From a virus, in the IMG/VR virus record IMGVR_UViG_3300045988_042831: DNA of 28,902 nucleotides. One strand, given 5' to 3'. Shown here in pieces: positions 1-28,902 of this stretch. The notes below the pieces were generated by a model, which was given only the letters and a program-made list of their open reading frames with translations, was not told where the DNA came from and ran no database searches. The position numbers and the translations under genes were made by a program. Each line of letters opens with the position of its first letter. Positions within the stretch are counted from its first letter, which is position 1.

Positions 1-55
1 GACAAGGACACAAAATAAATTCAATCCAACGGAGGAAACAAAAATGAAAAGAATT
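1..55 (+). repeat. 55-bp terminal overlap, identical to 28848-28902 and to internal 28097-28151
   Basis: Direct comparison of the strings gacaaggacacaaaataaattcaatccaacggaggaaacaaaaatgaaaagaatt. Confidence 0.95.
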
Positions 56-220
56 AAAGACTACAACGGCAACACGATTGATTTTGAAGCAGCGGTTATG
101 ATGATGGACGACGAAATCCGTGAAGAACTTCACGCGCAGGGCATTGAAGATGAGCAGGAATTTTATAATGCTTATTGCGATAAGCATTACGAGAAGTACG
201 GCGAAGATTTTGAGATTTGA
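44..220 (+). CDS. Small acidic protein, 58 aa (MKRIKDYNGNTIDFEAAVMMMDDEIREELH...), cargo of promoter cassette copy 2
   Basis: ATG at 44 lies 8 nt after GGAGG. The consensus promoter sits across the circular junction at 28805-28833. The ORF is below the 60-aa cutoff of the ORF track and was translated by hand; the stop TGA is at 218-220. Confidence 0.65.
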   Translation: MKRIKDYNGNTIDFEAAVMMMDDEIREELHAQGIEDEQEFYNAYCDKHYEKYGEDFEI

Positions 221-441
221 GAAAAAGAGGAATGAAGAATGCGGACATTGCACAGGCTCTAAATATCAGCGTTGCGACCGTCCGAACTTACGAGCCATAT
301 AATAAACAACAAAAACCATTAAAGCATCCCGCAAATAGCTTTGTAAAAAACAAAAAAGCCGCAGCGCCCATCGAAAAGATGAGGCCCTGCGGCTTTTTAA
401 CATCTTACTCCATCTGGATTGCATCAATGGCCGAGCCGTAA
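217..441 (+). CDS. Small HTH-like protein (..MKNADIAQALNISVATVRTYE..), possibly a remnant
   Basis: TTG at 217 overlaps the upstream stop (TTGA). The alternative ATG at 232 has GAGG only 1 nt upstream. The N-terminal 25 aa look like a helix-turn-helix. The reading frame runs through the terminator hairpin at 356-395 and overlaps the endolysin 3' end, so the C-terminal half is doubtful. Confidence 0.35.
   Translation: MRKRGMKNADIAQALNISVATVRTYEPYNKQQKPLKHPANSFVKNKKAAAPIEKMRPCGFLTSYSIWIASMAEP
350..400. terminator. Bidirectional intrinsic terminator closing the late operon (minus) and cassette 2 (plus)
   Basis: Stem aagccgcag (356-364) pairs with ctgcggctt (387-395). It is flanked by an A-run upstream and a T-run downstream, so a U-tract follows the stem on both strands. 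Confidence 0.7.
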
Positions 442-1388
442 ATGCCCGCGTAGCCGTTTGCGCCGGAATTATACTTGCTTCCAAAGCGCACCCAACCAAG
501 CCAGCCGCCGCCTTTGATATGTACGCGGCAGTCTACAAAGCCGACGGGCGTGCGTATCTGTACGCCGTCGATCTGCTCGCCGTAAATGCCCGCGTAACCG
601 TCTGCACCTGCGCCGCTGTTTTTGATCTCTGGGAGCCAACCGCCGCCCCGGAGATGAACGCGATAATAAATATCGCAGTTTTTGGCATTGATTTTAAGTC
701 CTTCCATAGCCTGTCCAAAGTTGCCCGCGTAGTCCTCGCAGTTTTTTACCTGCGGGAGCCAATGGCACCCCGCGTATGCGGAATACGTCAGATCACCCGT
801 GCAGGTGGGCTTCGGCGTACTCGGCTTGGGTGTAGGCTTTGCCGGTGTGCTCGCCGCACCAAGCTTTGCGTTGACCTTGGCGGCAATATCGGCGTGATGA
901 TTATAGAGGTACGTGCCCGGACAAGATTTATTATCAAAATCGCGGTGTACCGTCATGTTTGCGCCGTTGAGATGGTACACGCGGGTGTTTTTGTCCGTGC
1001 TCCATACGAGTTTTTTGATGCCGTTGCGTTTGCAAATGTCCGCAACGAGGTTGATAAGCGCCGCGTACGCTTTGCCCGTCACGGCGTAAGGCTCCGACAT
1101 ATCGGATGCCACCTCAATCGTTACGGCGCGGTGATCGTTATCGGGAGACGAGCTGCACCAAGAGCGGTCGCGCTCCTCCACGTACATACCTACACGCCCA
1201 TCGTATCCGATGCCGTAATTGGAGGAGGCCCCACGATTAGGATTGGCAAAGATGTTTCCGAGCGTCTCCACGCTCACCTGTCCAACCACGCAATGGATCG
1301 TGATTGTATCAATCGCGTGCTTTCTGGGGCTGTTTCTGTTGGGCGAGATACGAGTGTGATTTACAAGTGCGCTGTTTGTGTATGACAT
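405..1388 (-). CDS. Endolysin: N-acetylmuramoyl-L-alanine amidase (Amidase_2/PGRP fold) with three C-terminal ChW-like wall-binding repeats
   Basis: N-terminal TIHCVVGQ..SSNYGIGYDGRV..DRSWCSS..HRAVTIEV is typical of Amidase_2. The C-terminus has three repeats of the type GGGWLPEIKN..ADGYAGIYGEQIDGVQI. It is the last gene after the holin. Confidence 0.85.
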   Translation of the reverse strand: MSYTNSALVNHTRISPNRNSPRKHAIDTITIHCVVGQVSVETLGNIFANPNRGASSNYGIGYDGRVGMYVEERDRSWCSSSPDNDHRAVTIEVASDMSEPYAVTGKAYAALINLVADICKRNGIKKLVWSTDKNTRVYHLNGANMTVHRDFDNKSCPGTYLYNHHADIAAKVNAKLGAASTPAKPTPKPSTPKPTCTGDLTYSAYAGCHWLPQVKNCEDYAGNFGQAMEGLKINAKNCDIYYRVHLRGGGWLPEIKNSGAGADGYAGIYGEQIDGVQIRTPVGFVDCRVHIKGGGWLGWVRFGSKYNSGANGYAGIYGSAIDAIQME

Positions 1389-1475
1389 TTAGTCCTCATT
1401 TCCTTTGTTGTTCGAGAGTTCTTTCAAAGCTTCTTCTTTCAGTTCGTTTTCCTTCGTTTCCTTCACATTTTCCAT
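1389..1475 (-). CDS. 28-codon highly charged micro-ORF (MENVKETKENELKEEALKELSNNKGNED) between holin and endolysin
   Basis: Hand translation. RBS GAGGAGGA lies 6 nt upstream of the ATG at 1475. The stop TAA abuts the endolysin ATG (TAAATG). Confidence 0.3.
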   Translation of the reverse strand: MENVKETKENELKEEALKELSNNKGNED

Positions 1476-1500
1476 TCTGCGTCCTCCTCTCTTAGTTGAT

Positions 1501-1716
1501 TTAATCGCGCGTAGGTTCGTCCGTTACTTCCGGCAGACCAGCGACGCTCGTCAGCACGCTCAGCACGCCTGCAAGGGCGGAAGCGGATGCCACCATTGCC
1601 CAATTTACGTCACCGAGCGCAATACTTGTGCCGATTGTTGCCACGGCGGTCTGCGCGATTGTTTTCACGGCGCGGACGCCCGCGGCCTTGAGCCAATTTC
1701 TCCACTTTGTTTTCAT
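1501..1716 (-). CDS. Holin (small protein with two hydrophobic segments)
   Basis: 71 aa. MKTKWRNWLKAAGVRAVKTIAQTAVATIG... plus a second hydrophobic segment and an acidic C-terminus. It sits directly upstream of the endolysin, and its ATGA overlaps the upstream gene. Confidence 0.7.
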   Translation of the reverse strand: MKTKWRNWLKAAGVRAVKTIAQTAVATIGTSIALGDVNWAMVASASALAGVLSVLTSVAGLPEVTDEPTRD

Positions 1717-1976
1717 GGGTGATCCTTCCTTTCGATGTCCTCCAGGTCTGCAAGGCGGTGGTTTACGACCTTGATTTGCTCTTGTATTACGGGGATTTTT
1801 TCCGCAAAATTATTATGTTTTCGCACCTCCCGCGTGAGCTCTTCGATCTTCGCGTCCGTGATCGCCTGCGCGACCCGGAGCTTTTCTTCTGCGCGGCGGT
1901 TGCTGGCGACGTTGGTGATGATGACGCCGACAAGCGCGAGCCCGCCGGTGATGATCGCGACAAAAATGTTTTCCAT
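1713..1976 (-). CDS. N-terminally membrane-anchored coiled-coil protein of the lysis cassette (XhlA-like role possible)
   Basis: 87 aa. TM helix IFVAIITGGLALVGVIITNV followed by a charged heptad-like region. RBS GGGAGGG is present. It is translationally coupled to the holin. Confidence 0.55.
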   Translation of the reverse strand: MENIFVAIITGGLALVGVIITNVASNRRAEEKLRVAQAITDAKIEELTREVRKHNNFAEKIPVIQEQIKVVNHRLADLEDIERKDHP

Positions 1977-1994
1977 TGCTCGCCCTACCCTCCC

Positions 1995-3494
1995 TTATCC
2001 GATGATTGAAAACGCGGGACGCACACCAACGGCGAAGGAAGAGTTGGCTTGGCCCGCACGACCATCGGCATTGACAACAGCGAAAGAGGTGGTCGATACA
2101 ACATCTCTCAGTCCGAACACTTGCCTATTTGACATCATAGACGGGTCGTGAGCAAAGAGCGGAAACTGAGACTTGTCGATAGTGTACAGATACGGAGTGG
2201 GAGAGCCATTATTACCCACACCAAAAATCTCACCGCCGTAAACATTTTGCTCGTTCATAAGCTCAACCGTGCTGTCGTACCAAGAGCCGCCACTCGGCTT
2301 ACCGCCGTTAACGGCGTTGACGAGTAACTGACGATGGGTCATAATATGGTTTGAGCCAAATGCGTTGTTGATTTTTGTTTTCGCTTCCGCAAGTCCCTCC
2401 GTGTACATCTTAGAGCCGATGTAACCGCCCGTGGTAATGTTCGCGTCGTTCACGACATGAGTGTACAGGTTCGCGTCGGGGACAATTACGACATGATGGG
2501 TGGTGCAAGAGACATCTCCCGTCTTGTAGTAATAATCAAAAGCGGCAATACGCCAGTTGACACTATCAATTACCCAGTAATCACCGATATACAGGTCGGT
2601 AAAACTACCATCCGCAATAGCCGCCCATTGTGCGGCGGTCACGCTCGTACCGAGGTTTTTGCCGCGGTAGATGGAGTTATGCGCGCCAGCCCCGCTAGAC
2701 AGTATGGCAAGCACAGGCGCCGCCGCGTTTTCCGCGTTCGTTGCCGCGGTCTGCGCTGCCGTTTTCGCGCTTTCGGCCGCAGCCGCATCGCTGCTGGCGT
2801 TGCTGGCTGCCGTCTCTGCTGCGGTCTTGGCGCCTTCCGCGTCGCTTGCGCTGGTGGCGGCGTTTGTTTCAGACGTGCCCTCATTGGTGGCCGCTGTCTG
2901 CGCCTGTCCGGCCGCGGTGGAGGCTGTACTCGCAGAGCTGGCGGCCGCCGTCGCGGCTCCTGCCGCTGCGCTGGCCGAAGATGTCGCCTGTTCTGCCGCT
3001 TCCTTTGCGGCGGTGACGTTGCCCTCGATCCCCTCCGCCGCCGCGAGCACATCGGCGATCTGCTTGGTCAGGACGCTGTAGTAATCCGACGATACGATCT
3101 CCGCGTCGGAGACGACATTGGGCAAGACGTGCATCACGACCGCAAACGTCGCGATGCTGGTGCCCGCATTATCGTACAGCTTGATCTGTACCGGCACGTT
3201 TCCGCGCACCGTAAAAGCCTGCGGCACGAGGGCCACGGTCACGACGTTGTCGTCGATCGTCGCGGCCGGTGTGTTGCCGTCAGGCAGCGTGTCGTAAAAT
3301 CCTGCGGTGCCGTCCGGCTTTTTGTAGCGGACGGTCACAAGCGTACCGTCTGGCACAACCCATTGCGCGCCGCCCGCGTAGATGCTAAAAGCGATCTTGC
3401 GGCTGTTGCTGTCGTCCTGTACCGCGTGTATGATCTGCGGCGCGCCCGGGTCGAGCAGGTCGACGCGCAGCGCCGCCGTTGTTTCAATTGGCAT
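1995..3494 (-). CDS. Tail fibre / receptor-binding protein with BppU-like N-terminal domain
   Basis: N-terminus ..VQDDSNSRKIAFSIY..PDGTLVTVRYKKPDGT.. matches the BppU_N pattern from memory. A central region of about 110 aa is Ala/Ser/Thr-rich and low-complexity. The C-terminal domain is distinct. It is the last structural gene. Confidence 0.7.
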   Translation of the reverse strand: MPIETTAALRVDLLDPGAPQIIHAVQDDSNSRKIAFSIYAGGAQWVVPDGTLVTVRYKKPDGTAGFYDTLPDGNTPAATIDDNVVTVALVPQAFTVRGNVPVQIKLYDNAGTSIATFAVVMHVLPNVVSDAEIVSSDYYSVLTKQIADVLAAAEGIEGNVTAAKEAAEQATSSASAAAGAATAAASSASTASTAAGQAQTAATNEGTSETNAATSASDAEGAKTAAETAASNASSDAAAAESAKTAAQTAATNAENAAAPVLAILSSGAGAHNSIYRGKNLGTSVTAAQWAAIADGSFTDLYIGDYWVIDSVNWRIAAFDYYYKTGDVSCTTHHVVIVPDANLYTHVVNDANITTGGYIGSKMYTEGLAEAKTKINNAFGSNHIMTHRQLLVNAVNGGKPSGGSWYDSTVELMNEQNVYGGEIFGVGNNGSPTPYLYTIDKSQFPLFAHDPSMMSNRQVFGLRDVVSTTSFAVVNADGRAGQANSSFAVGVRPAFSIIG

Positions 3495-16639: not shown

Positions 16640-16840
16640 TTACCCCCGCCGGTCCCTACAAGCCCCGGAAGGCGCGTCGGATGAGGGGGGGATCTCTGCG
16701 TCCGTTGAACAAGCGCCGCCCGTGAGTGCAGATATTTCTTTTATTTTTTCATACAGACTTTTGATGTCTCTGATCGCGCAGTCAAGCTCTTCTCGGTCGA
16801 CTTTTATTTTTACCGTGATGTGCGGCTCTTTATCGCTCAT
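16640..16840 (-). CDS. Hypothetical protein, 66 aa
   Basis: The start at 16840 has RBS GGGGAGG and an ATGA overlap with the HNH stop. No family was recognised. Confidence 0.5.
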   Translation of the reverse strand: MSDKEPHITVKIKVDREELDCAIRDIKSLYEKIKEISALTGGACSTDAEIPPSSDAPSGACRDRRG

Positions 16841-17088
16841 ATCCTGTACCTCCCCGCGTTCTTTGCTTTTTCCGGATGCATTTTGTTGTGGCACGCCTCA
16901 CACAGGCTGATAAGATTGTCTGCGTTATACGCAAGCTCCGGATGCTCATCCGCGTGCTCTATGTGGTGTACGGTCGTTGCTTGACGGCGCCGCCCATACC
17001 GCAGGCAATACCGGCACAGATAACCGTCCCGCCTCAGTACAGACGCTCGCAACCTCCGCCATCTCGGCGCGTTGTAATCAAAGCTCAT
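16837..17088 (-). CDS. HNH endonuclease core (packaging-associated)
   Basis: ..RWRRLRASVLRRDGYLCRYC....VHHIEH....N..SLCEACHNKMH. The start MSFDY at 17088 has a GGAG RBS and an ATGA overlap with the upstream ORF. Confidence 0.8.
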   Translation of the reverse strand: MSFDYNAPRWRRLRASVLRRDGYLCRYCLRYGRRRQATTVHHIEHADEHPELAYNADNLISLCEACHNKMHPEKAKNAGRYRI

Positions 17089-17282
17089 GATCCTATCTCC
17101 GAATCGCTGCACTCTTTCTTCCCGGTCTCCCGCAGATACGCTTCCCGCCGCTCCGTCAGCCGCGTGGTGCATAGCGCATACGGGCAAACCACAAGCATGC
17201 ACAAATGCTCGCCCGTCCTCGCGTATGTATCCCAAACGCAACCGCTTGAGCGTGGACACGGGCGATATGCTTTTTTACTCAT
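17085..17282 (-). CDS. Cys-rich 65-aa protein resembling the N-terminal zinc-ribbon part of phage HNH endonucleases
   Basis: MSKKAYRPCPRSSGC...CPYALC. RBS GGGAGG. It has ATGA overlaps at both ends (17279-17282 and 17085-17088). Confidence 0.5.
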   Translation of the reverse strand: MSKKAYRPCPRSSGCVWDTYARTGEHLCMLVVCPYALCTTRLTERREAYLRETGKKECSDSEIGS

Positions 17283-22295: not shown

Positions 22296-23117
22296 TTAAA
22301 ATCCTCCTAATCTGTAATTACGGGATGTATCCCGCTTAATGTTGTTTGTATGCGCCCGGGCCCGCTCGGCAATGCGCGATCCGATCGCATCATCGAGCTG
22401 CAAAATCTCCGCTATGGTCAGCTCGGAAGAAATCACTGTCATCTTGCGCCCGTTGTATCGGTTGTTGATGATCTCGTATGCAAGGTTTAAGTCTCCCTGC
22501 GTCGGCGGTGACTTTTTGCCATTGTCGCCTGCGCCTGTGCGCAAAAAATCATCGAGGTAAAGGCAGTCTGTTTTCATCAGCTCGTCCATACGTGCAGTAT
22601 ATTCGGGCTCATTGATGCAGGCTTTTAATTCCGCCGCAATTCTCTTCCACGGCGTATAGATTGCCGATTTTCCGTTTTGGAGCAGCTTGCCTACAATGGC
22701 GGTGCAAATATGCGTTTTTCCCGCTCCGACCTGCCCGCCGACAAAAAACCATCCTTCGGGGTTCCGGCAATAATCGCACGCGCTGCGCATGATCTGTTCC
22801 TGCCACGGTTCTCGAATTTCGTAGGATTTAAAAGTGTATCGGTTCATAATATCTTTGAGACCGCTTTTCTCTATCCGCTGCCACGATCTGCGCACCGCCA
22901 TACAGCTGCACTCTTTCGCTACCTCATAGCCGTCTTCAAGCGCATAGATCACGCCTTTGCTTTTGCACTCCGGGCAGTCCATGCCGGGCAGATCACCCGG
23001 CAGTGCATTTAGCACATCGATTTGACGCTGGCGGTAGTCATCAAACGAGCGTACCGCCGTACTTTTCGTACGGATTGACGCTGGTATCATTTCGCGGAAG
23101 CTCTCCATGTCTTGCAC
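22296..23117 (-). CDS. DnaC/IstB-like AAA+ helicase loader
   Basis: Walker A GGQVGAGKTH and Walker B CLYLDDF. There is an N-terminal CPEC...C zinc-ribbon-like motif. The start is uncertain and overlaps the upstream gene by 50-77 nt. Confidence 0.8.
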   Translation of the reverse strand: MQDMESFREMIPASIRTKSTAVRSFDDYRQRQIDVLNALPGDLPGMDCPECKSKGVIYALEDGYEVAKECSCMAVRRSWQRIEKSGLKDIMNRYTFKSYEIREPWQEQIMRSACDYCRNPEGWFFVGGQVGAGKTHICTAIVGKLLQNGKSAIYTPWKRIAAELKACINEPEYTARMDELMKTDCLYLDDFLRTGAGDNGKKSPPTQGDLNLAYEIINNRYNGRKMTVISSELTIAEILQLDDAIGSRIAERARAHTNNIKRDTSRNYRLGGF

Positions 23118-23925
23118 CTCCTTTGTCCTGCTCGCGCGCCAACCAGCGGTTGATAAACGCCAGTGCGCCGCGCTTTGTCTTACGGTTTTGCGGGTTTGCC
23201 TCGCTCCATCCGATCATTTTACGTATTTCTTGCTCTATATCTACTGCCGGATATAGAGCAGCCCATTTGCTTATGTCCTCTTTGCTTATCGGATAATAAG
23301 AGCCGTCATGGAGTATCAGTCGGTATGCCGGCGCTGAGGCGGACTCGTCCGCGCTCTGCGCATACTCCTTTACTTTACTTTCCTTTACTTTACTTTCCTT
23401 TACTTTACTTTGTGGGTTTTCCGTCGGTTTACTTGGGTTTTCCGTCGGTTTACTGGGGTTTTCCGTCGGAAAACTCGATAAAAGCGTAACTTTATTACGG
23501 ATGTTCGCCGGAACATCTCTTTCGTCGCTTATATCAAGCAAAAAATACTCTTTAATAAATCGCACATCAGCTCTGTTCTTTCCGATGATTCTCAAGTATC
23601 TTTGCTGTATTCCGTGAGAGGTGAGCACGCCAAACGCATTGTAGATACCCTCGTCAAAAAGAGAACGTCTGCAGCACCCTCGTACTACCTCCATAATAAA
23701 ACTCGCTTCGCAACCACCACCGACACCCTCGGACATCAGGAGGCAGTCTTCTTCGCCGAATTTTGCATAATATCCGTTTTCGCTGTACGCCATATTGATA
23801 AGCTCTAAAGCTATATAAGCGCCCTTTATTCCAAATTCGGAGCGAATCAAACGGAATTTACGATCTTGGAAAAGTCCCACATCAAAAGGCCAATAGTCCA
23901 CATTTTCTTTCTGCGGTCTCGCCAT
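23041..23925 (-). CDS. Phage replisome organiser / replication initiator (DUF4373-type N-terminal domain)
   Basis: ..VDYWPFDVGLFQDRKFRLIRSEFGIKGAYIALELINMAY.. N-terminus. Central ENPSKPT x3 and SKVKE x3 repeats are encoded by DNA iterons. Confidence 0.7.
   Translation of the reverse strand: MARPQKENVDYWPFDVGLFQDRKFRLIRSEFGIKGAYIALELINMAYSENGYYAKFGEEDCLLMSEGVGGGCEASFIMEVVRGCCRRSLFDEGIYNAFGVLTSHGIQQRYLRIIGKNRADVRFIKEYFLLDISDERDVPANIRNKVTLLSSFPTENPSKPTENPSKPTENPQSKVKESKVKESKVKEYAQSADESASAPAYRLILHDGSYYPISKEDISKWAALYPAVDIEQEIRKMIGWSEANPQNRKTKRGALAFINRWLAREQDKGGARHGELPRNDTSVNPYEKYGGTLV
23367..23470. repeat. Two adjacent tandem repeat sets inside the replisome organiser gene: 15 bp x3 (23367-23411) and 21 bp x about 2.7 (23414-23470)
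   Basis: cctttactttacttt x3, then gggttttccgtcggtttact(t/g) repeated. Read directly from the sequence. Confidence 0.9.
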
Positions 23926-26215: not shown

Positions 26216-26947
26216 TCATACATCTACCTCGACAAACTCGCCGTTTTCGAGCCTATACCACGTATCAGCTTTGATTCGCACACCGTCAACAATTTCTGCT
26301 TTTACGGCTATTGGTACGTAATTTACGTTATCATCGCATTCCCATTCAGTTAAAACAATCACAGAGTGGAGACCGCCTTTTGCGTTACACCCGTTCCGGC
26401 CAATAATCAGTGATGAGTTGCCGCCCATGAGGTTGCTCTTGTCTCCGCCTAAGAGGTTGCTACCGTTTCCGCCTAAGAGGTTGCTACAATTTCCGCCTGA
26501 GAGGTTGCTCCAGCTGCCGCCTGAGAGGTTGCTATCGTCTCCGCCTGAGAGGTTGCTACAATATCCGCCTGATAGGTTGCTACAATATCCGCCTGAGAGG
26601 TTGCTCCGGATGCCGCCTACGGTCCCCTCTTTGGCTTTTTTGCGGGTGTACTCTATTTGCGCCTTTACAAGCCCAGCAAAGTTAATTTCGCTTTTGAGTG
26701 TTAATTCTGATGATGCTAATTTGCTATCATCATTTTTTGCCTTATCGATTTCGCCTCCCGCTTCTGCCTCAAAAAAACGATTGCCGTTGATATTATGATA
26801 ATACCGCAGCACATCAAACGGAGCCTCACACGAGTGATAGCCTTTATTCCCGCAACGGATCGCGCCGTCATCGACCTCTTTTTTGCCTAGCACGTATTGT
26901 TTGCCTCGGCATTGCATGTTTTTGTCTGTACCCTTGTAAACTTTCAC
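26216..26947 (-). CDS. DUF7666-like N-terminal domain fused to eight tandem 8-residue SNLSGGxx repeats (predicted beta-solenoid)
   Basis: MKVYKGTDKNMQCRGKQY....C..GYHSCEAPFDVLRYY is the family signature as I recall it. Repeats: SNLSGGYC, SNLSGGYC, SNLSGGDD, SNLSGGSW, SNLSGGNC, SNLLGGNG, SNLLGGDK, SNLMGGNS. The GTG start overlaps the upstream stop (GTGA). Confidence 0.7.
   Translation of the reverse strand: MKVYKGTDKNMQCRGKQYVLGKKEVDDGAIRCGNKGYHSCEAPFDVLRYYHNINGNRFFEAEAGGEIDKAKNDDSKLASSELTLKSEINFAGLVKAQIEYTRKKAKEGTVGGIRSNLSGGYCSNLSGGYCSNLSGGDDSNLSGGSWSNLSGGNCSNLLGGNGSNLLGGDKSNLMGGNSSLIIGRNGCNAKGGLHSVIVLTEWECDDNVNYVPIAVKAEIVDGVRIKADTWYRLENGEFVEVDV
26414..26605. repeat. 24-bp tandem repeat x8 (coding, in frame)
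   Basis: Unit ccgcc(t/c)(g/a)a(g/t)aggttgct plus 7 variable nt. Period 24 was verified by hand. Confidence 0.9.
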
Positions 26948-27554: not shown

Positions 27555-27574
27555 GATTCCGAGCAGATAGCCAT

Positions 27575-27787
27575 TTAAGCGCCACTCCTATGGAATAGTT
27601 CATTGGGCGTCACATTCAGGGCAACCGACAGCGCTTCAATATCTGTATCTCTGATAATTTTTCTACCATTTAGAAGGTCGCTGAATTGCTTTTCATTCAT
27701 ACCAATTTTTGCTGCAATCGCTTTGTGTTTCATACCCTTTTCCGAAATGATGCGCTTGGTATTCTCTGCGATAACGGATGTATACAT
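27575..27787 (-). CDS. Cro-like XRE-family HTH regulator, first gene of the early operon
   Basis: ..KRIISEKGMKHKAIAAKIGMNEKQFSDLLNGRK.. HTH_3 pattern. 70 aa. RBS GAGGTGG. A divergent promoter region lies upstream. Confidence 0.8.
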   Translation of the reverse strand: MYTSVIAENTKRIISEKGMKHKAIAAKIGMNEKQFSDLLNGRKIIRDTDIEALSVALNVTPNELFHRSGA

Positions 27788-27827
27788 TTAACCACCTCTT
27801 TTCCTCAAGTTTCTTTATCTTGACTAT

Positions 27828-27856
27828 ATCTTAACTCAAATTTCTTGAATTGTCAA
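27828..27856 (-). promoter_or_regulatory. Early leftward promoter (TTGACA - 17 nt - TAAGAT on the minus strand)
   Basis: -35 is the reverse complement of tgtcaa at 27851-27856. -10 is the reverse complement of atctta at 27828-27833. Confidence 0.6.
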
Positions 27857-27859
27857 GAG
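27844..27859. promoter_or_regulatory. Operator-like palindrome TCTTGA-ATTG-TCAAGA overlapping the -35 of the early promoter
   Basis: 6-bp perfect arms. Related half-sites: TCAAG at 27805-27809, CTTGA at 27819-27823, and the direct repeat AAATTTCTTGAA at 27838-27849 and 27869-27880. Confidence 0.5.
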
Positions 27860-27888
27860 CTTTTTCTAAAATTTCTTGAACCCTTTTT

Positions 27889-27917
27889 TTGACTAATCAA
27901 CATTTTTATGTTTTAAT
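27889..27917 (+). promoter_or_regulatory. Rightward promoter of the repressor remnant (TTGACT - 17 nt - TTTAAT with an upstream TG)
   Basis: ttgact at 27889-27894 and tttaat at 27912-27917. Confidence 0.45.
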
Positions 27918-27955
27918 ATAGACAAAGAAACTCAACTGGCAAGGAGGTGATTCTG

Positions 27956-28045
27956 TTGGGCATAGGAAAGCGAATAAAAGAGGCAAGAGAACGTGCTGGA
28001 TTAACGTCCTTGTCTTCTAAATCAAGATTTTTTAAAAAAATTTGA
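27956..28045 (+). pseudogene. Truncated CI-like XRE repressor: only the first ~17 codons (MGIGKRIKEARERAGLT) are repressor-like
   Basis: RBS AAGGAGGTGA lies 5 nt before TTG at 27956. The HTH helix-1 pattern breaks off at about 28005, and the frame runs into the 133-bp repeat and stops at 28045. Confidence 0.6.
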
Positions 28046-28151
28046 AAAAGTACTTGACTTTATATAGCTGATGCTGTATAATATAAGAGTCAAAAGGACA
28101 AGGACACAAAATAAATTCAATCCAACGGAGGAAACAAAAATGAAAAGAATT
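28019..28151 (+). repeat. 133-bp expression element, copy 1 (UP-like A/T tract, promoter, leader, RBS, codons 1-4)
   Basis: Exact identity with 28770-28902 (offset 751), checked base by base. Confidence 0.95.
28054..28082 (+). promoter_or_regulatory. Consensus sigma-70-type promoter TTGACT - 17 nt - TATAAT (cassette 1)
   Basis: ttgact at 28054-28059 and tataat at 28077-28082. Confidence 0.75.
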
Positions 28152-28334
28152 GAAACTATCGCAAAGAAAATGATCGAAACCGGCTCTACCGAGTATCGCA
28201 CCGCAAAGTACACGTACAGAATTAAAGACCGTATCGACGAAAACGGTGACGGTTACTATAGTTTAGAGTGCACTGAAAATTGGCACCTCGAAGCTTTCCC
28301 GGACAACAGCTGGGAAAGCCTTATGAGAGTTTAA
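28140..28334 (+). CDS. Small protein, 64 aa (MKRIETIAKKMIETGSTEYRTAKYTYRIKDRIDENGDGYYSLECTENW...), cargo of cassette 1
   Basis: ATG at 28140 lies 8 nt after GGAGG (28127-28131). The ORF-track start at 28071 was rejected because it lies inside the promoter. Confidence 0.65.
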   Translation: MKRIETIAKKMIETGSTEYRTAKYTYRIKDRIDENGDGYYSLECTENWHLEAFPDNSWESLMRV

Positions 28335-28401
28335 GTTTGCCGGTTGAAGCATTTGACGCTATGCCGGTTGCCTACGATCCACCGAGTAAAGGAGCTAAAA
28401 A

Positions 28402-28602
28402 ATGACAAACTTACAGCGATTACGTTTAGCCGCCGGATTATCTCAATCCCAATTAGCGAGCAAATCCGGCGTAAACGTCCGAATGATACAGCAATATGAG
28501 TGCAAAAATCGCAACATTAATAAAGCTCAATTTGATACGGTCTGCGAATTGTCCTCTGCCCTATCGATTCGGGCGGAGGATTTGCGAGAAATCGACGAGT
28601 AA
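28402..28602 (+). CDS. XRE-family HTH protein, 66 aa
   Basis: LRLAAGLSQSQLASKSGVNVRMIQQYECKNRNINKAQ.. HTH_3 pattern. RBS AAAGGAG. Confidence 0.8.
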   Translation: MTNLQRLRLAAGLSQSQLASKSGVNVRMIQQYECKNRNINKAQFDTVCELSSALSIRAEDLREIDE

Positions 28603-28606
28603 AAGC

Positions 28607-28645
28607 AAAAACCCCGGTAGCTGATTAGCATACCGGGGTTTTGCC
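28607..28645 (+). terminator. Intrinsic terminator of cassette 1
   Basis: Stem aaaaccccggta pairs with taccggggtttt (core 28612-28619 with 28631-28638), 11-nt loop, followed by a T-tract. Confidence 0.8.
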
Positions 28646-28769
28646 TGTTTGTGCCGAAATTGTCAAAAGGACGGCAAAAACAATTTCATTTCAATCCTAC
28701 GCCCCGTTCCCAGGGCGACATGTTCGGAGGAAATCCGAATGCTTAATAGTATAGCTTGTCTTGCGAAAA

Positions 28770-28902
28770 AAATCAAGATTTTTTAAAAAAATTTGAAAAA
28801 GTACTTGACTTTATATAGCTGATGCTGTATAATATAAGAGTCAAAAGGACAAGGACACAAAATAAATTCAATCCAACGGAGGAAACAAAAATGAAAAGAA
28901 TT
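28770..28902 (+). repeat. 133-bp expression element, copy 2 (continues into base 56 through the circular junction)
   Basis: Exact identity with 28019-28151. Confidence 0.95.
28805..28833 (+). promoter_or_regulatory. Consensus promoter TTGACT - 17 nt - TATAAT (cassette 2, drives the ORF at 44-220)
   Basis: ttgact at 28805-28810 and tataat at 28828-28833. Confidence 0.75.

Follow-up and report, generated by a model that had tools for sequence, protein, structure and literature searches.

The stretch of viral DNA analysed here (IMG/VR record IMGVR_UViG_3300045988_042831; 28,902 nucleotides, hereafter the window) carries an exact repeat of 133 bp. On the grounds of sequence and genomic context, this element is the promoter common to two adjacent, predicted anti-CRISPR operons of a human-gut phage. 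The first operon holds a 64-residue open reading frame (ORF), orf64, followed by the gene for HTH66, a 66-residue protein of the XRE helix-turn-helix (HTH) type; the second opens with a homologue of the anti-CRISPR (Acr) protein AcrIC5. We interpret the arrangement as an acr-aca locus, in which two tandem operons stand on one promoter module and HTH66, in the role of an anti-CRISPR-associated (Aca) regulator, would repress both, and we give this reading a probability of roughly 0.7. What had been an unexplained repeat would then become a concrete anti-CRISPR locus in an abundant, uncultured group of gut phages of Hominenteromicrobium.

A duplicated expression module

Positions 28019-28151 and 28770-28902 agree at 133 of 133 nucleotides and lie 751 bp apart, start to start. 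The module of copy 1 (28019..28151, plus strand), which is kept in all relatives, extends from an A/T tract (28019-28053) through a -35 element TTGACT (28054-28059), a -10 element TATAAT (28077-28082) and a ribosome-binding site (RBS), GGAGG, at 28127-28131, 8 nt ahead of the ATG at 28140, to codon 4. Copy 2 (28770..28902, plus strand) has the same layout, with the -35 element at 28805-28810, the -10 element at 28828-28833, the RBS at 28878-28882 and the ATG at 28891, which is the same base as window position 44. The promoter, TTGACT-17-TATAAT, scores 11/12 against the consensus, and its two instances (28054-28082 and 28805-28833) are the top two sigma-70-like sites of the region. The leader of about 50 nt is unstructured (folding free energy, dG, -4.1) and the coding part reads ATG AAA AGA ATT (MKRI). 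Directly after codon 4 the copies diverge (G at 28152 versus A at 56), a boundary that is the same in independent assemblies, and orf64 and the 58-residue protein of the second operon have nothing in common past MKRI. GC content is about 40% around the locus, compared with 50-62% in the rest of the window. The spacer at 28640-28770 folds no better than shuffled sequence (z -1.35), and Rfam and tRNA scans of the window returned no matches.

An earlier, sequence-only reading of this DNA had described much of this architecture, and its description holds: the exact repeat and its spacing; a consensus promoter, a leader of about 50 nt, a GGAGG RBS and four shared codons, each confirmed by promoter scoring, folding or the sequence; a locus more AT-rich than the remaining genome; and two autonomous promoter-cargo-terminator units that have their expression signal in common and differ in cargo.

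The ends of the contig fall within the repeat, which raises the question of whether the real genome has one copy and the second was created by the assembler on circularisation. Window positions 1..55 (plus strand) are an assembler overlap, identical to 28848-28902 and adding no extra sequence, so that the circular genome measures 28,847 bp; the break in the contig coincides exactly with the repeat's 3' edge, and the window assembly is the only one in which the copies are 100% identical. Breaking contigs at repeat edges is, for its part, the usual behaviour of de Bruijn assemblers. We consider an artefact extremely improbable. Both copies are present in 20/20 contigs recovered via the exact orf64 or 58-residue proteins, a set that stems from different assemblers and includes integrated prophages on host contigs of 0.1-0.9 Mb. 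More broadly, over 40 independent contigs built with MEGAHIT, SPAdes or other assemblers have two copies at the same positions, with unique flanks on all sides; integrated prophages on contigs as long as 0.9 Mb are among them, and in most of the contigs the copies differ slightly from each other. In nine otherwise identical sister contigs, a mismatch and an indel in the A/T tract set copy 1 apart from copy 2; the complete identity in the window therefore reflects either recent gene conversion or consensus collapse. A search with the exact 29-nt promoter had no match in IMG/VR or GTDB genomes, and a degenerate promoter pattern matched 11 IMG/VR contigs and 26 metagenome stretches and none of the GTDB species representatives. 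Nine of the 11 IMG/VR contigs have two copies in one stretch, 801-1558 bp apart; the other two have them in separate stretches.

An AcrIC5-family homologue in the second operon

The first gene of operon 2 (44..220, plus strand) encodes a 58-residue protein, residues 6-56 of which align to positions 2-53 of the 53-position Pfam profile PF22147 with 67.4 bits (gathering cut-off 27) and an E-value of 1.2e-18. It also matches PDB entry 7yhr_A, 'Anti-CRISPR protein Type I-C5', at E 1.8e-10, and is strongly acidic, with an isoelectric point of 4.25 and 17 D+E versus 6 K+R. Homology over its full length places the ORF in the AcrIC5 anti-CRISPR family, and we infer that its product would act as an Acr in this host. 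AcrIC5 orthologues occur in Proteobacteria, Firmicutes and Actinobacteria (PMC7913775), AcrIC5 of gut phages is associated with many Aca families (PMC9765179), and AcrIC5 itself, a small and highly acidic Acr, is described as occupying the target-DNA-binding site (PMC10478522). The likeness to the Pseudomonas protein (PF22147; 7yhr) extends over its full length, 58 versus 60 residues, and includes the strongly acidic character; the setting differs, as this is a Firmicutes gut phage, in the relatives of which the next gene encodes a 279-residue zinc-ribbon/HTH protein and not Aca1. The sequence-only reading had correctly called an acidic 58-residue ORF at this position while recognising no family for it, and in that second respect it is superseded by the PF22147 match.

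The second ORF of this operon (217..441, plus strand), which had been taken for an HTH-like gene coupled through TTGA, turns out to be a pseudogene stump. A tblastn comparison places residues 239-275 of orf279, the 279-residue gene of the relatives, at window positions 214-324; what is kept is the last approximately 37 codons, the C-terminal HTH part, followed by a frameshifted tail that runs across the terminator into the convergent endolysin gene and differs between sister contigs. A deletion of about 700 bp joined imperfect 20-nt direct repeats, GAGGAAyGAAGA(A)TGCsGAC. The ORF is probably a non-functional gene remnant, and the proposal of two cassettes, each with a small ORF and a mini-HTH, consequently fails for the second: the genuine HTH gene is in cassette 1 only. 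Temperate relatives have orf279 intact (for example L011 5195-6034), with four CxxC zinc ribbons, the C-terminal HTH and no confident Pfam family. There it is co-transcribed with the AcrIC5-like gene, and its product may serve as a further regulator or in anti-defence. The predicted bidirectional terminator does exist behind cassette 2, at 353..398 (dG -30.8 on the plus and -32.1 on the minus strand), between operon 2 and the convergent endolysin (405-1388, minus strand; Amidase_2).

HTH66 and its variable neighbours in the first operon

Operon 1 comprises orf64 (28140..28334, plus strand), the HTH66 gene (28402..28602, plus strand; Pfam HTH_3, E 5e-7) and an intrinsic terminator (28605..28644, plus strand; dG -25.2 kcal/mol, z -6.6), all three as first described. 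A simple terminator scanner missed both terminators of the locus and folding found both. Between variants, the terminator behind HTH66 keeps its stem unchanged and has its 11-nt loop inverted (GCTGATTAGCA versus TGCTAATCAGC; window 28613-28636 against L046 3708-3740), a flip polymorphism of the hairpin loop.

No match to orf64 was found in Pfam, PHROG, PADLOC or NCBIfam, four libraries that bear out the earlier statement that it belongs to no recognisable family. Among 5.8 billion clustered proteins only relatives at least 76% identical were retrieved, and a profile search of 1.84 billion representatives returned its own family together with spurious, multi-stretch matches to Ig/cadherin repeat proteins. 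Its AlphaFold2 (AF2) model (pLDDT 78; one helix and five strands) found nothing better than E 0.4 among PDB folds. As the first gene of an aca-containing operon, orf64 is a candidate anti-CRISPR or anti-defence protein. In some relatives its position is taken by orf125; this gene and the other ORFs met in first-gene or neighbouring positions (orf89, orf98 and ORFs of 81, 35 and 148 residues) have no Pfam or NCBIfam family.

The constant element is HTH66, which lies 3' of the variable small genes in 31/31 fully examined relatives with two or three promoters, where it follows orf64, or orf125 with up to two acidic genes of 89-98 codons (orf89-98). Its AF2 model (pLDDT 93.6) is a five-helix fold, and the top PDB folds are the restriction-modification (R-M) controllers C.AhdI and C.BclI (TM 0.79, 25-34% identity). 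We regard HTH66 as a candidate Aca-type repressor of both promoters.

Many type II toxin-antitoxin modules likewise consist of a small ORF followed by a small XRE-type HTH, and HTH66 has weak, below-cut-off NCBIfam matches to HipB- and MqsA-like antitoxin models. The sequence-only reading had accordingly guessed at toxin-antitoxin, immunity or superinfection-exclusion pairs with a tiny HTH as antidote or regulator. This guess now appears very unlikely: one of the two small proteins is an AcrIC5 homologue, the second 'HTH' is a pseudogene stump, and neither small protein matches a toxin or defence family. Unrelated genes replace the first gene while the HTH stays, the opposite of what a co-evolving toxin-antidote pair would do. 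Moreover, one variant has lost orf64 and the HTH together and another has lost the entire locus (L151 and L153, described below), with no sign of addiction.

A candidate operator that co-varies with the recognition helix

Each copy of the module contains a 20-bp dyad, TATATAGC-TGAT-GCTGTATA, at 28061..28080 in copy 1 and 28812-28831 in copy 2, which we propose as the candidate operator of HTH66. Its arms are complementary at 7/8 positions, and it sits between the -35 and -10 elements, with a 4-nt overlap with the latter. It occurs nowhere else in the 28.9-kb window even when two mismatches are allowed (chance expectation 0.01). In the relatives the arms are conserved, and perfect (8/8) in several, and the central N4 is the most variable part of the module; this type 1 form of the dyad can be written TATAYAsC-N4-GsTGTATA.

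Homologues of HTH66 were gathered from IMG/VR and metagenomes. Those that are 56-59% identical and lie in unrelated gene contexts (L035, L057-L069 and L071), with the recognition helix GVNVRM(I/Y)Q (helix 1), have the dyad in their own promoter, and in L035 it is perfect (TATACACC-CGTA-GGTGTATA). In L034, L054 and L055, by contrast, which keep the promoter scaffold and cargo genes of the helix-1 phages, the helix is NVKLRSIQ (helix 2) and both promoter copies carry TATAYYAC-N4-GTRRTATA. Overall, helix 1 goes with dyad 1 at 85/86 loci and helix 2 with dyad 2 at 3/3, and the two are never mixed; the exceptions, one helix-1 locus lacking dyad 1 and four dyad-1 sites lacking an HTH, are short fragments or an aca-deleted variant. 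We infer from this co-variation that HTH66 would bind the dyad and repress.

Several observations weigh against this interpretation. Since the loci share ancestry, and since the search pattern by which some of them were retrieved includes the dyad, the tally represents few independent lineages (about four of type 1 and one of type 2). As the right arm overlaps the -10 element, the promoter itself explains part of the conservation of the dyad. No Aca appears among the PDB sequence matches of HTH66 at E <= 1 or among its top 50 fold matches, a comparison that covered Aca families with solved structures in the PDB, and HTH66 falls below every curated NCBIfam cut-off; its Aca status comes from context and co-variation. 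No gene of the HTH66 operon matches a known Acr, orf64 having no detectable likeness to any, and the AcrIC5 homologue lies outside the aca operon, in the next one, past a terminator and a second promoter. Finally, L046 has lost the -35 element and dyad of copy 2, and L151 (ERZ28666242 scaffold_238), of the window lineage, lacks orf64 and HTH66 and keeps one hybrid copy in front of the AcrIC5-like gene; since it persists with the AcrIC5 promoter, repression must be dispensable or supplied otherwise.

The overlap with the -10 element and the existence of L151 and L046 would also suit a simpler explanation, in which the promoters are constitutive 'moron' promoters, the dyad is an incidental by-product of an AT-rich spacer beside TATAAT, and HTH66 acts elsewhere or on itself only, via another site. 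We consider this unlikely. The left arm lies in the spacer, a part of promoters that is normally not conserved, but this arm is maintained and the central N4 is variable; the dyad switches in both copies along with the recognition helix; and distant homologues in other contexts have the same dyad in their own promoter.

Another alternative takes the structural likeness literally. The nearest folds being C.AhdI and C.BclI, and PADLOC giving weak matches to 'Control_protein' models, HTH66 might be a dual regulator that first activates and then represses the twin promoters for timing. C proteins such as C.AhdI and C.Esp1396I typically exert their control from tandem C-boxes upstream of or overlapping the -35 element. 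Here the single dyad lies between the -35 and -10 elements, a position that suggests repression only, and a promoter with 11/12 consensus positions, 17-bp spacing and an A/T tract needs no activator; a dual role is therefore quite unlikely. What HTH66 does have in common with C.AhdI and C.BclI is the fold of a small, dimeric XRE autoregulator and a dyad at the promoter; the genes that it would regulate are anti-defence and not R-M genes.

Two other sequences were tried as binding sites and rejected. The outer inverted repeat TTGAC…GTCAA has arms 12 and 18 nt off the dyad centre, and its left arm is the -35 element. The 9-bp direct repeat tgccggttg, for which a binding role had been suggested in the sequence-only reading, is indeed present, in a patchwork intergenic segment found in only some relatives; the segment is not conserved and the suggested role is dropped.

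At L035 (Logan SRR18573374_44178, 997-3231), beside a serine recombinase, small orphan genes form an operon whose last gene encodes the 59%-identical HTH homologue. Six small genes precede the HTH, one directly after the recombinase and five behind the dyad promoter. The locus is likely to be another anti-defence island in a different prophage.

Predicted mode of action

On repression of both operons by HTH66, the following course can be envisaged. Upon phage entry, host sigma-A RNA polymerase would start at the two near-consensus promoters, aided by the upstream A/T tract, the open leader and the strong RBS, and expression would come as an early burst. Operon 1 would yield orf64 and HTH66, and operon 2 the AcrIC5-family protein, which by homology would block target-DNA binding by type I-C Cascade. 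As HTH66 accumulates, dimers would occupy the 20-bp dyad of both copies, occlude the promoters and turn both operons down, so that HTH66 would serve as an Aca controlling its own operon and its neighbour. As long, near-identical direct repeats, the modules would be kept uniform by gene conversion and would act as sites of recombination.

Unchecked acr promoters can reportedly harm the phage, as is said of the Aca1 system. In the window, operon 2 faces the late/lysis genes head-on and is stopped by the bidirectional terminator, an arrangement in which damping would be useful.

Relation to known systems

Control of neighbouring operons by one Aca is already published, and the mechanism is not new. 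Aca14 of Pasteurella multocida has been shown to repress its own and a neighbouring operon via the same inverted repeat, and control of this kind is predicted for most Aca families (PMC13551039). The same neighbouring-operon control is attributed to Aca11/Aca13 in Streptococcus by earlier work, as cited in PMC13551039, and Aca1 and Aca2 provide predicted cases with up to three sites (PMC13551039; PMC12282945).

Akin to acr-aca operons in general, the locus has a small DNA-binding regulator at the 3' end of an operon of variable small genes on a phage or prophage, and an inverted repeat over the core promoter that appears regulator-specific by its uniqueness and by helix co-variation. As at Aca14-type loci, the same motif recurs at the promoter of the adjacent operon, which holds a known Acr, and clusters in relatives have two to three such promoters. 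Unlike those loci, the whole unit of about 133 bp is duplicated and nearly identical, and not the operator alone. In contrast to the named Aca systems, this one has a regulator with no match among solved Aca structures, belongs to phages of gut Oscillospiraceae and is described from sequence.

What is new is a further member of the AcrIC5 family, a probable Aca-type repressor with a defined candidate operator, and the orphan candidate orf64. Association with the locus makes orphan anti-defence candidates of orf64 in the window and of orf125, orf89-98 and orf98 in the relatives. The two helix/dyad pairs on one promoter scaffold should be useful for studies of Aca specificity. The value of the locus thus lies in a well-documented example and a source of candidates.

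Cassette turnover

Across about 120 instances of the promoter, some eight different first genes stand behind the module: the AcrIC5-like gene (about 50), orf64/67 (about 38), orf125 (about 21), orf98 (five) and, once each, the acidic orf89 and ORFs of 81, 35 and 148 residues. In L052, each of three promoter copies has a different gene behind it. The 3' limit of the common sequence varies with the cargo: with orf64 and AcrIC5 the limit is the end of codon 4, in one orf125 arrangement it is the ATG, and loci with a short alternative leader diverge after 'ACAAAAT'. The copies within a genome differ at a median of 2 positions, versus 6.4 between genomes (permutation p = 0.006), and there is no position-specific signature, since between genomes the differences among first copies (p1-p1) are about as large as those between first and second copies (p1-p2). 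This combination points to gene conversion or shuffling.

Loci with 0, 1, 2 and 3 cassettes were all seen, and together they constitute a natural deletion series that illustrates the turnover of an acr locus. L151 is the one-copy variant, on a public metagenome contig, that results from the 751-bp deletion of cassette 1 anticipated by the sequence-only reading. In L153 (Logan SRR35235397_2649), a variant of the same lineage, both cassettes were lost at an ATTTTAT microhomology; this contig also has a different replication module. The expectation that the element would precede other cargo genes is likewise borne out by the eight or so first genes. The term 'integron-like' does not fit: as with integron cassettes, interchangeable and unrelated small genes follow one kind of promoter context, with cassette numbers from 0 to 3, but the window yielded neither an integrase nor a recombinase, there is no attI and no common hairpin (attC-like) site at the cassette junctions, each cassette has its own copy of the promoter, and the junctions vary. 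The exchange of cassettes looks like ordinary homologous or microhomology recombination.

A bolder proposal, which we put forward tentatively and rate as possible rather than probable, is that the module of about 70-133 bp is the vehicle of an integrase-free cassette system that loads, swaps and drops anti-defence genes. Copies in one genome would stay similar through gene conversion, and co-infecting Oscillospiraceae phages would recombine homologously at the modules. Were this true, orf64, orf125, the acidic orf89-98 and orf98 would be new anti-CRISPR or anti-defence families.

Phage lineage and host

The gene order of temperate relatives is CI, further genes, integrase, phage attachment site (attP), promoter, orf64, zero to two acidic genes encoding 89-98 residues, HTH66, terminator, promoter, AcrIC5-like gene, orf279 and convergent endolysin. 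CI and integrase thus lie directly upstream of cassette 1, which agrees with the earlier remark that the locus occupies the usual position of these genes; in the window they are deleted. At the left boundary, the first approximately 19 codons of an XRE-like gene (…GIGKRIKEARERAGL…; 27947..28004, plus strand) remain, and homology to the temperate relatives restarts at 28005. This stump would be the N-terminus of a repressor, a scar of the lost lysogeny module. The window holds no homologue of the relatives' integrase or CI, and its larger unassigned ORFs show no recombinase domain. The immunity region at 27556-28004 has no counterpart in the temperate relatives fetched (L011, L017 and L020 were compared).

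Judged by this comparison, the window lineage has lost CI (beyond the approximately 19 codons), integrase and attP. Exact proteins specific to the lineage never occur on contigs above 50 kb, unlike the AcrIC5-like protein, and contigs of about 28 kb belonging to it come from at least 15 different metagenome samples. Derived by deletion from a temperate phage of Hominenteromicrobium, the phage has probably become obligately lytic or non-integrating.

Where the phage is integrated, the orf64 promoter region directly adjoins the Rex gene of the host, and the exact Rex and isocitrate dehydrogenase proteins of the host carry the annotation Hominenteromicrobium/Oscillospiraceae. As the promoter pattern matched no GTDB species representative, the host assignment derives from these flanking host proteins. 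No match was found by blastn of the locus against cultured phages, and the terminase has distant relatives only, in Firmicutes siphoviruses.

Other features of the window

Three tandem 21-nt repeats (TGGGTTTTCCGTCGGTTTACT) at 23413-23475 lie within a Lin1244_N replication gene (23041-23925, minus strand) and may be origin iterons. At 26392-26631, about ten 24-nt tandem repeats code for SNLSGGxx units in a DUF7666 gene (26216-26947, minus strand), the product of which ranges from 193 to 281 residues among sister contigs; L002, L008 and L010 have no full-length call. Just upstream of the terminase genes, an HNH endonuclease gene (16837-17259, minus strand) forms the usual HNH-terminase packaging arrangement.

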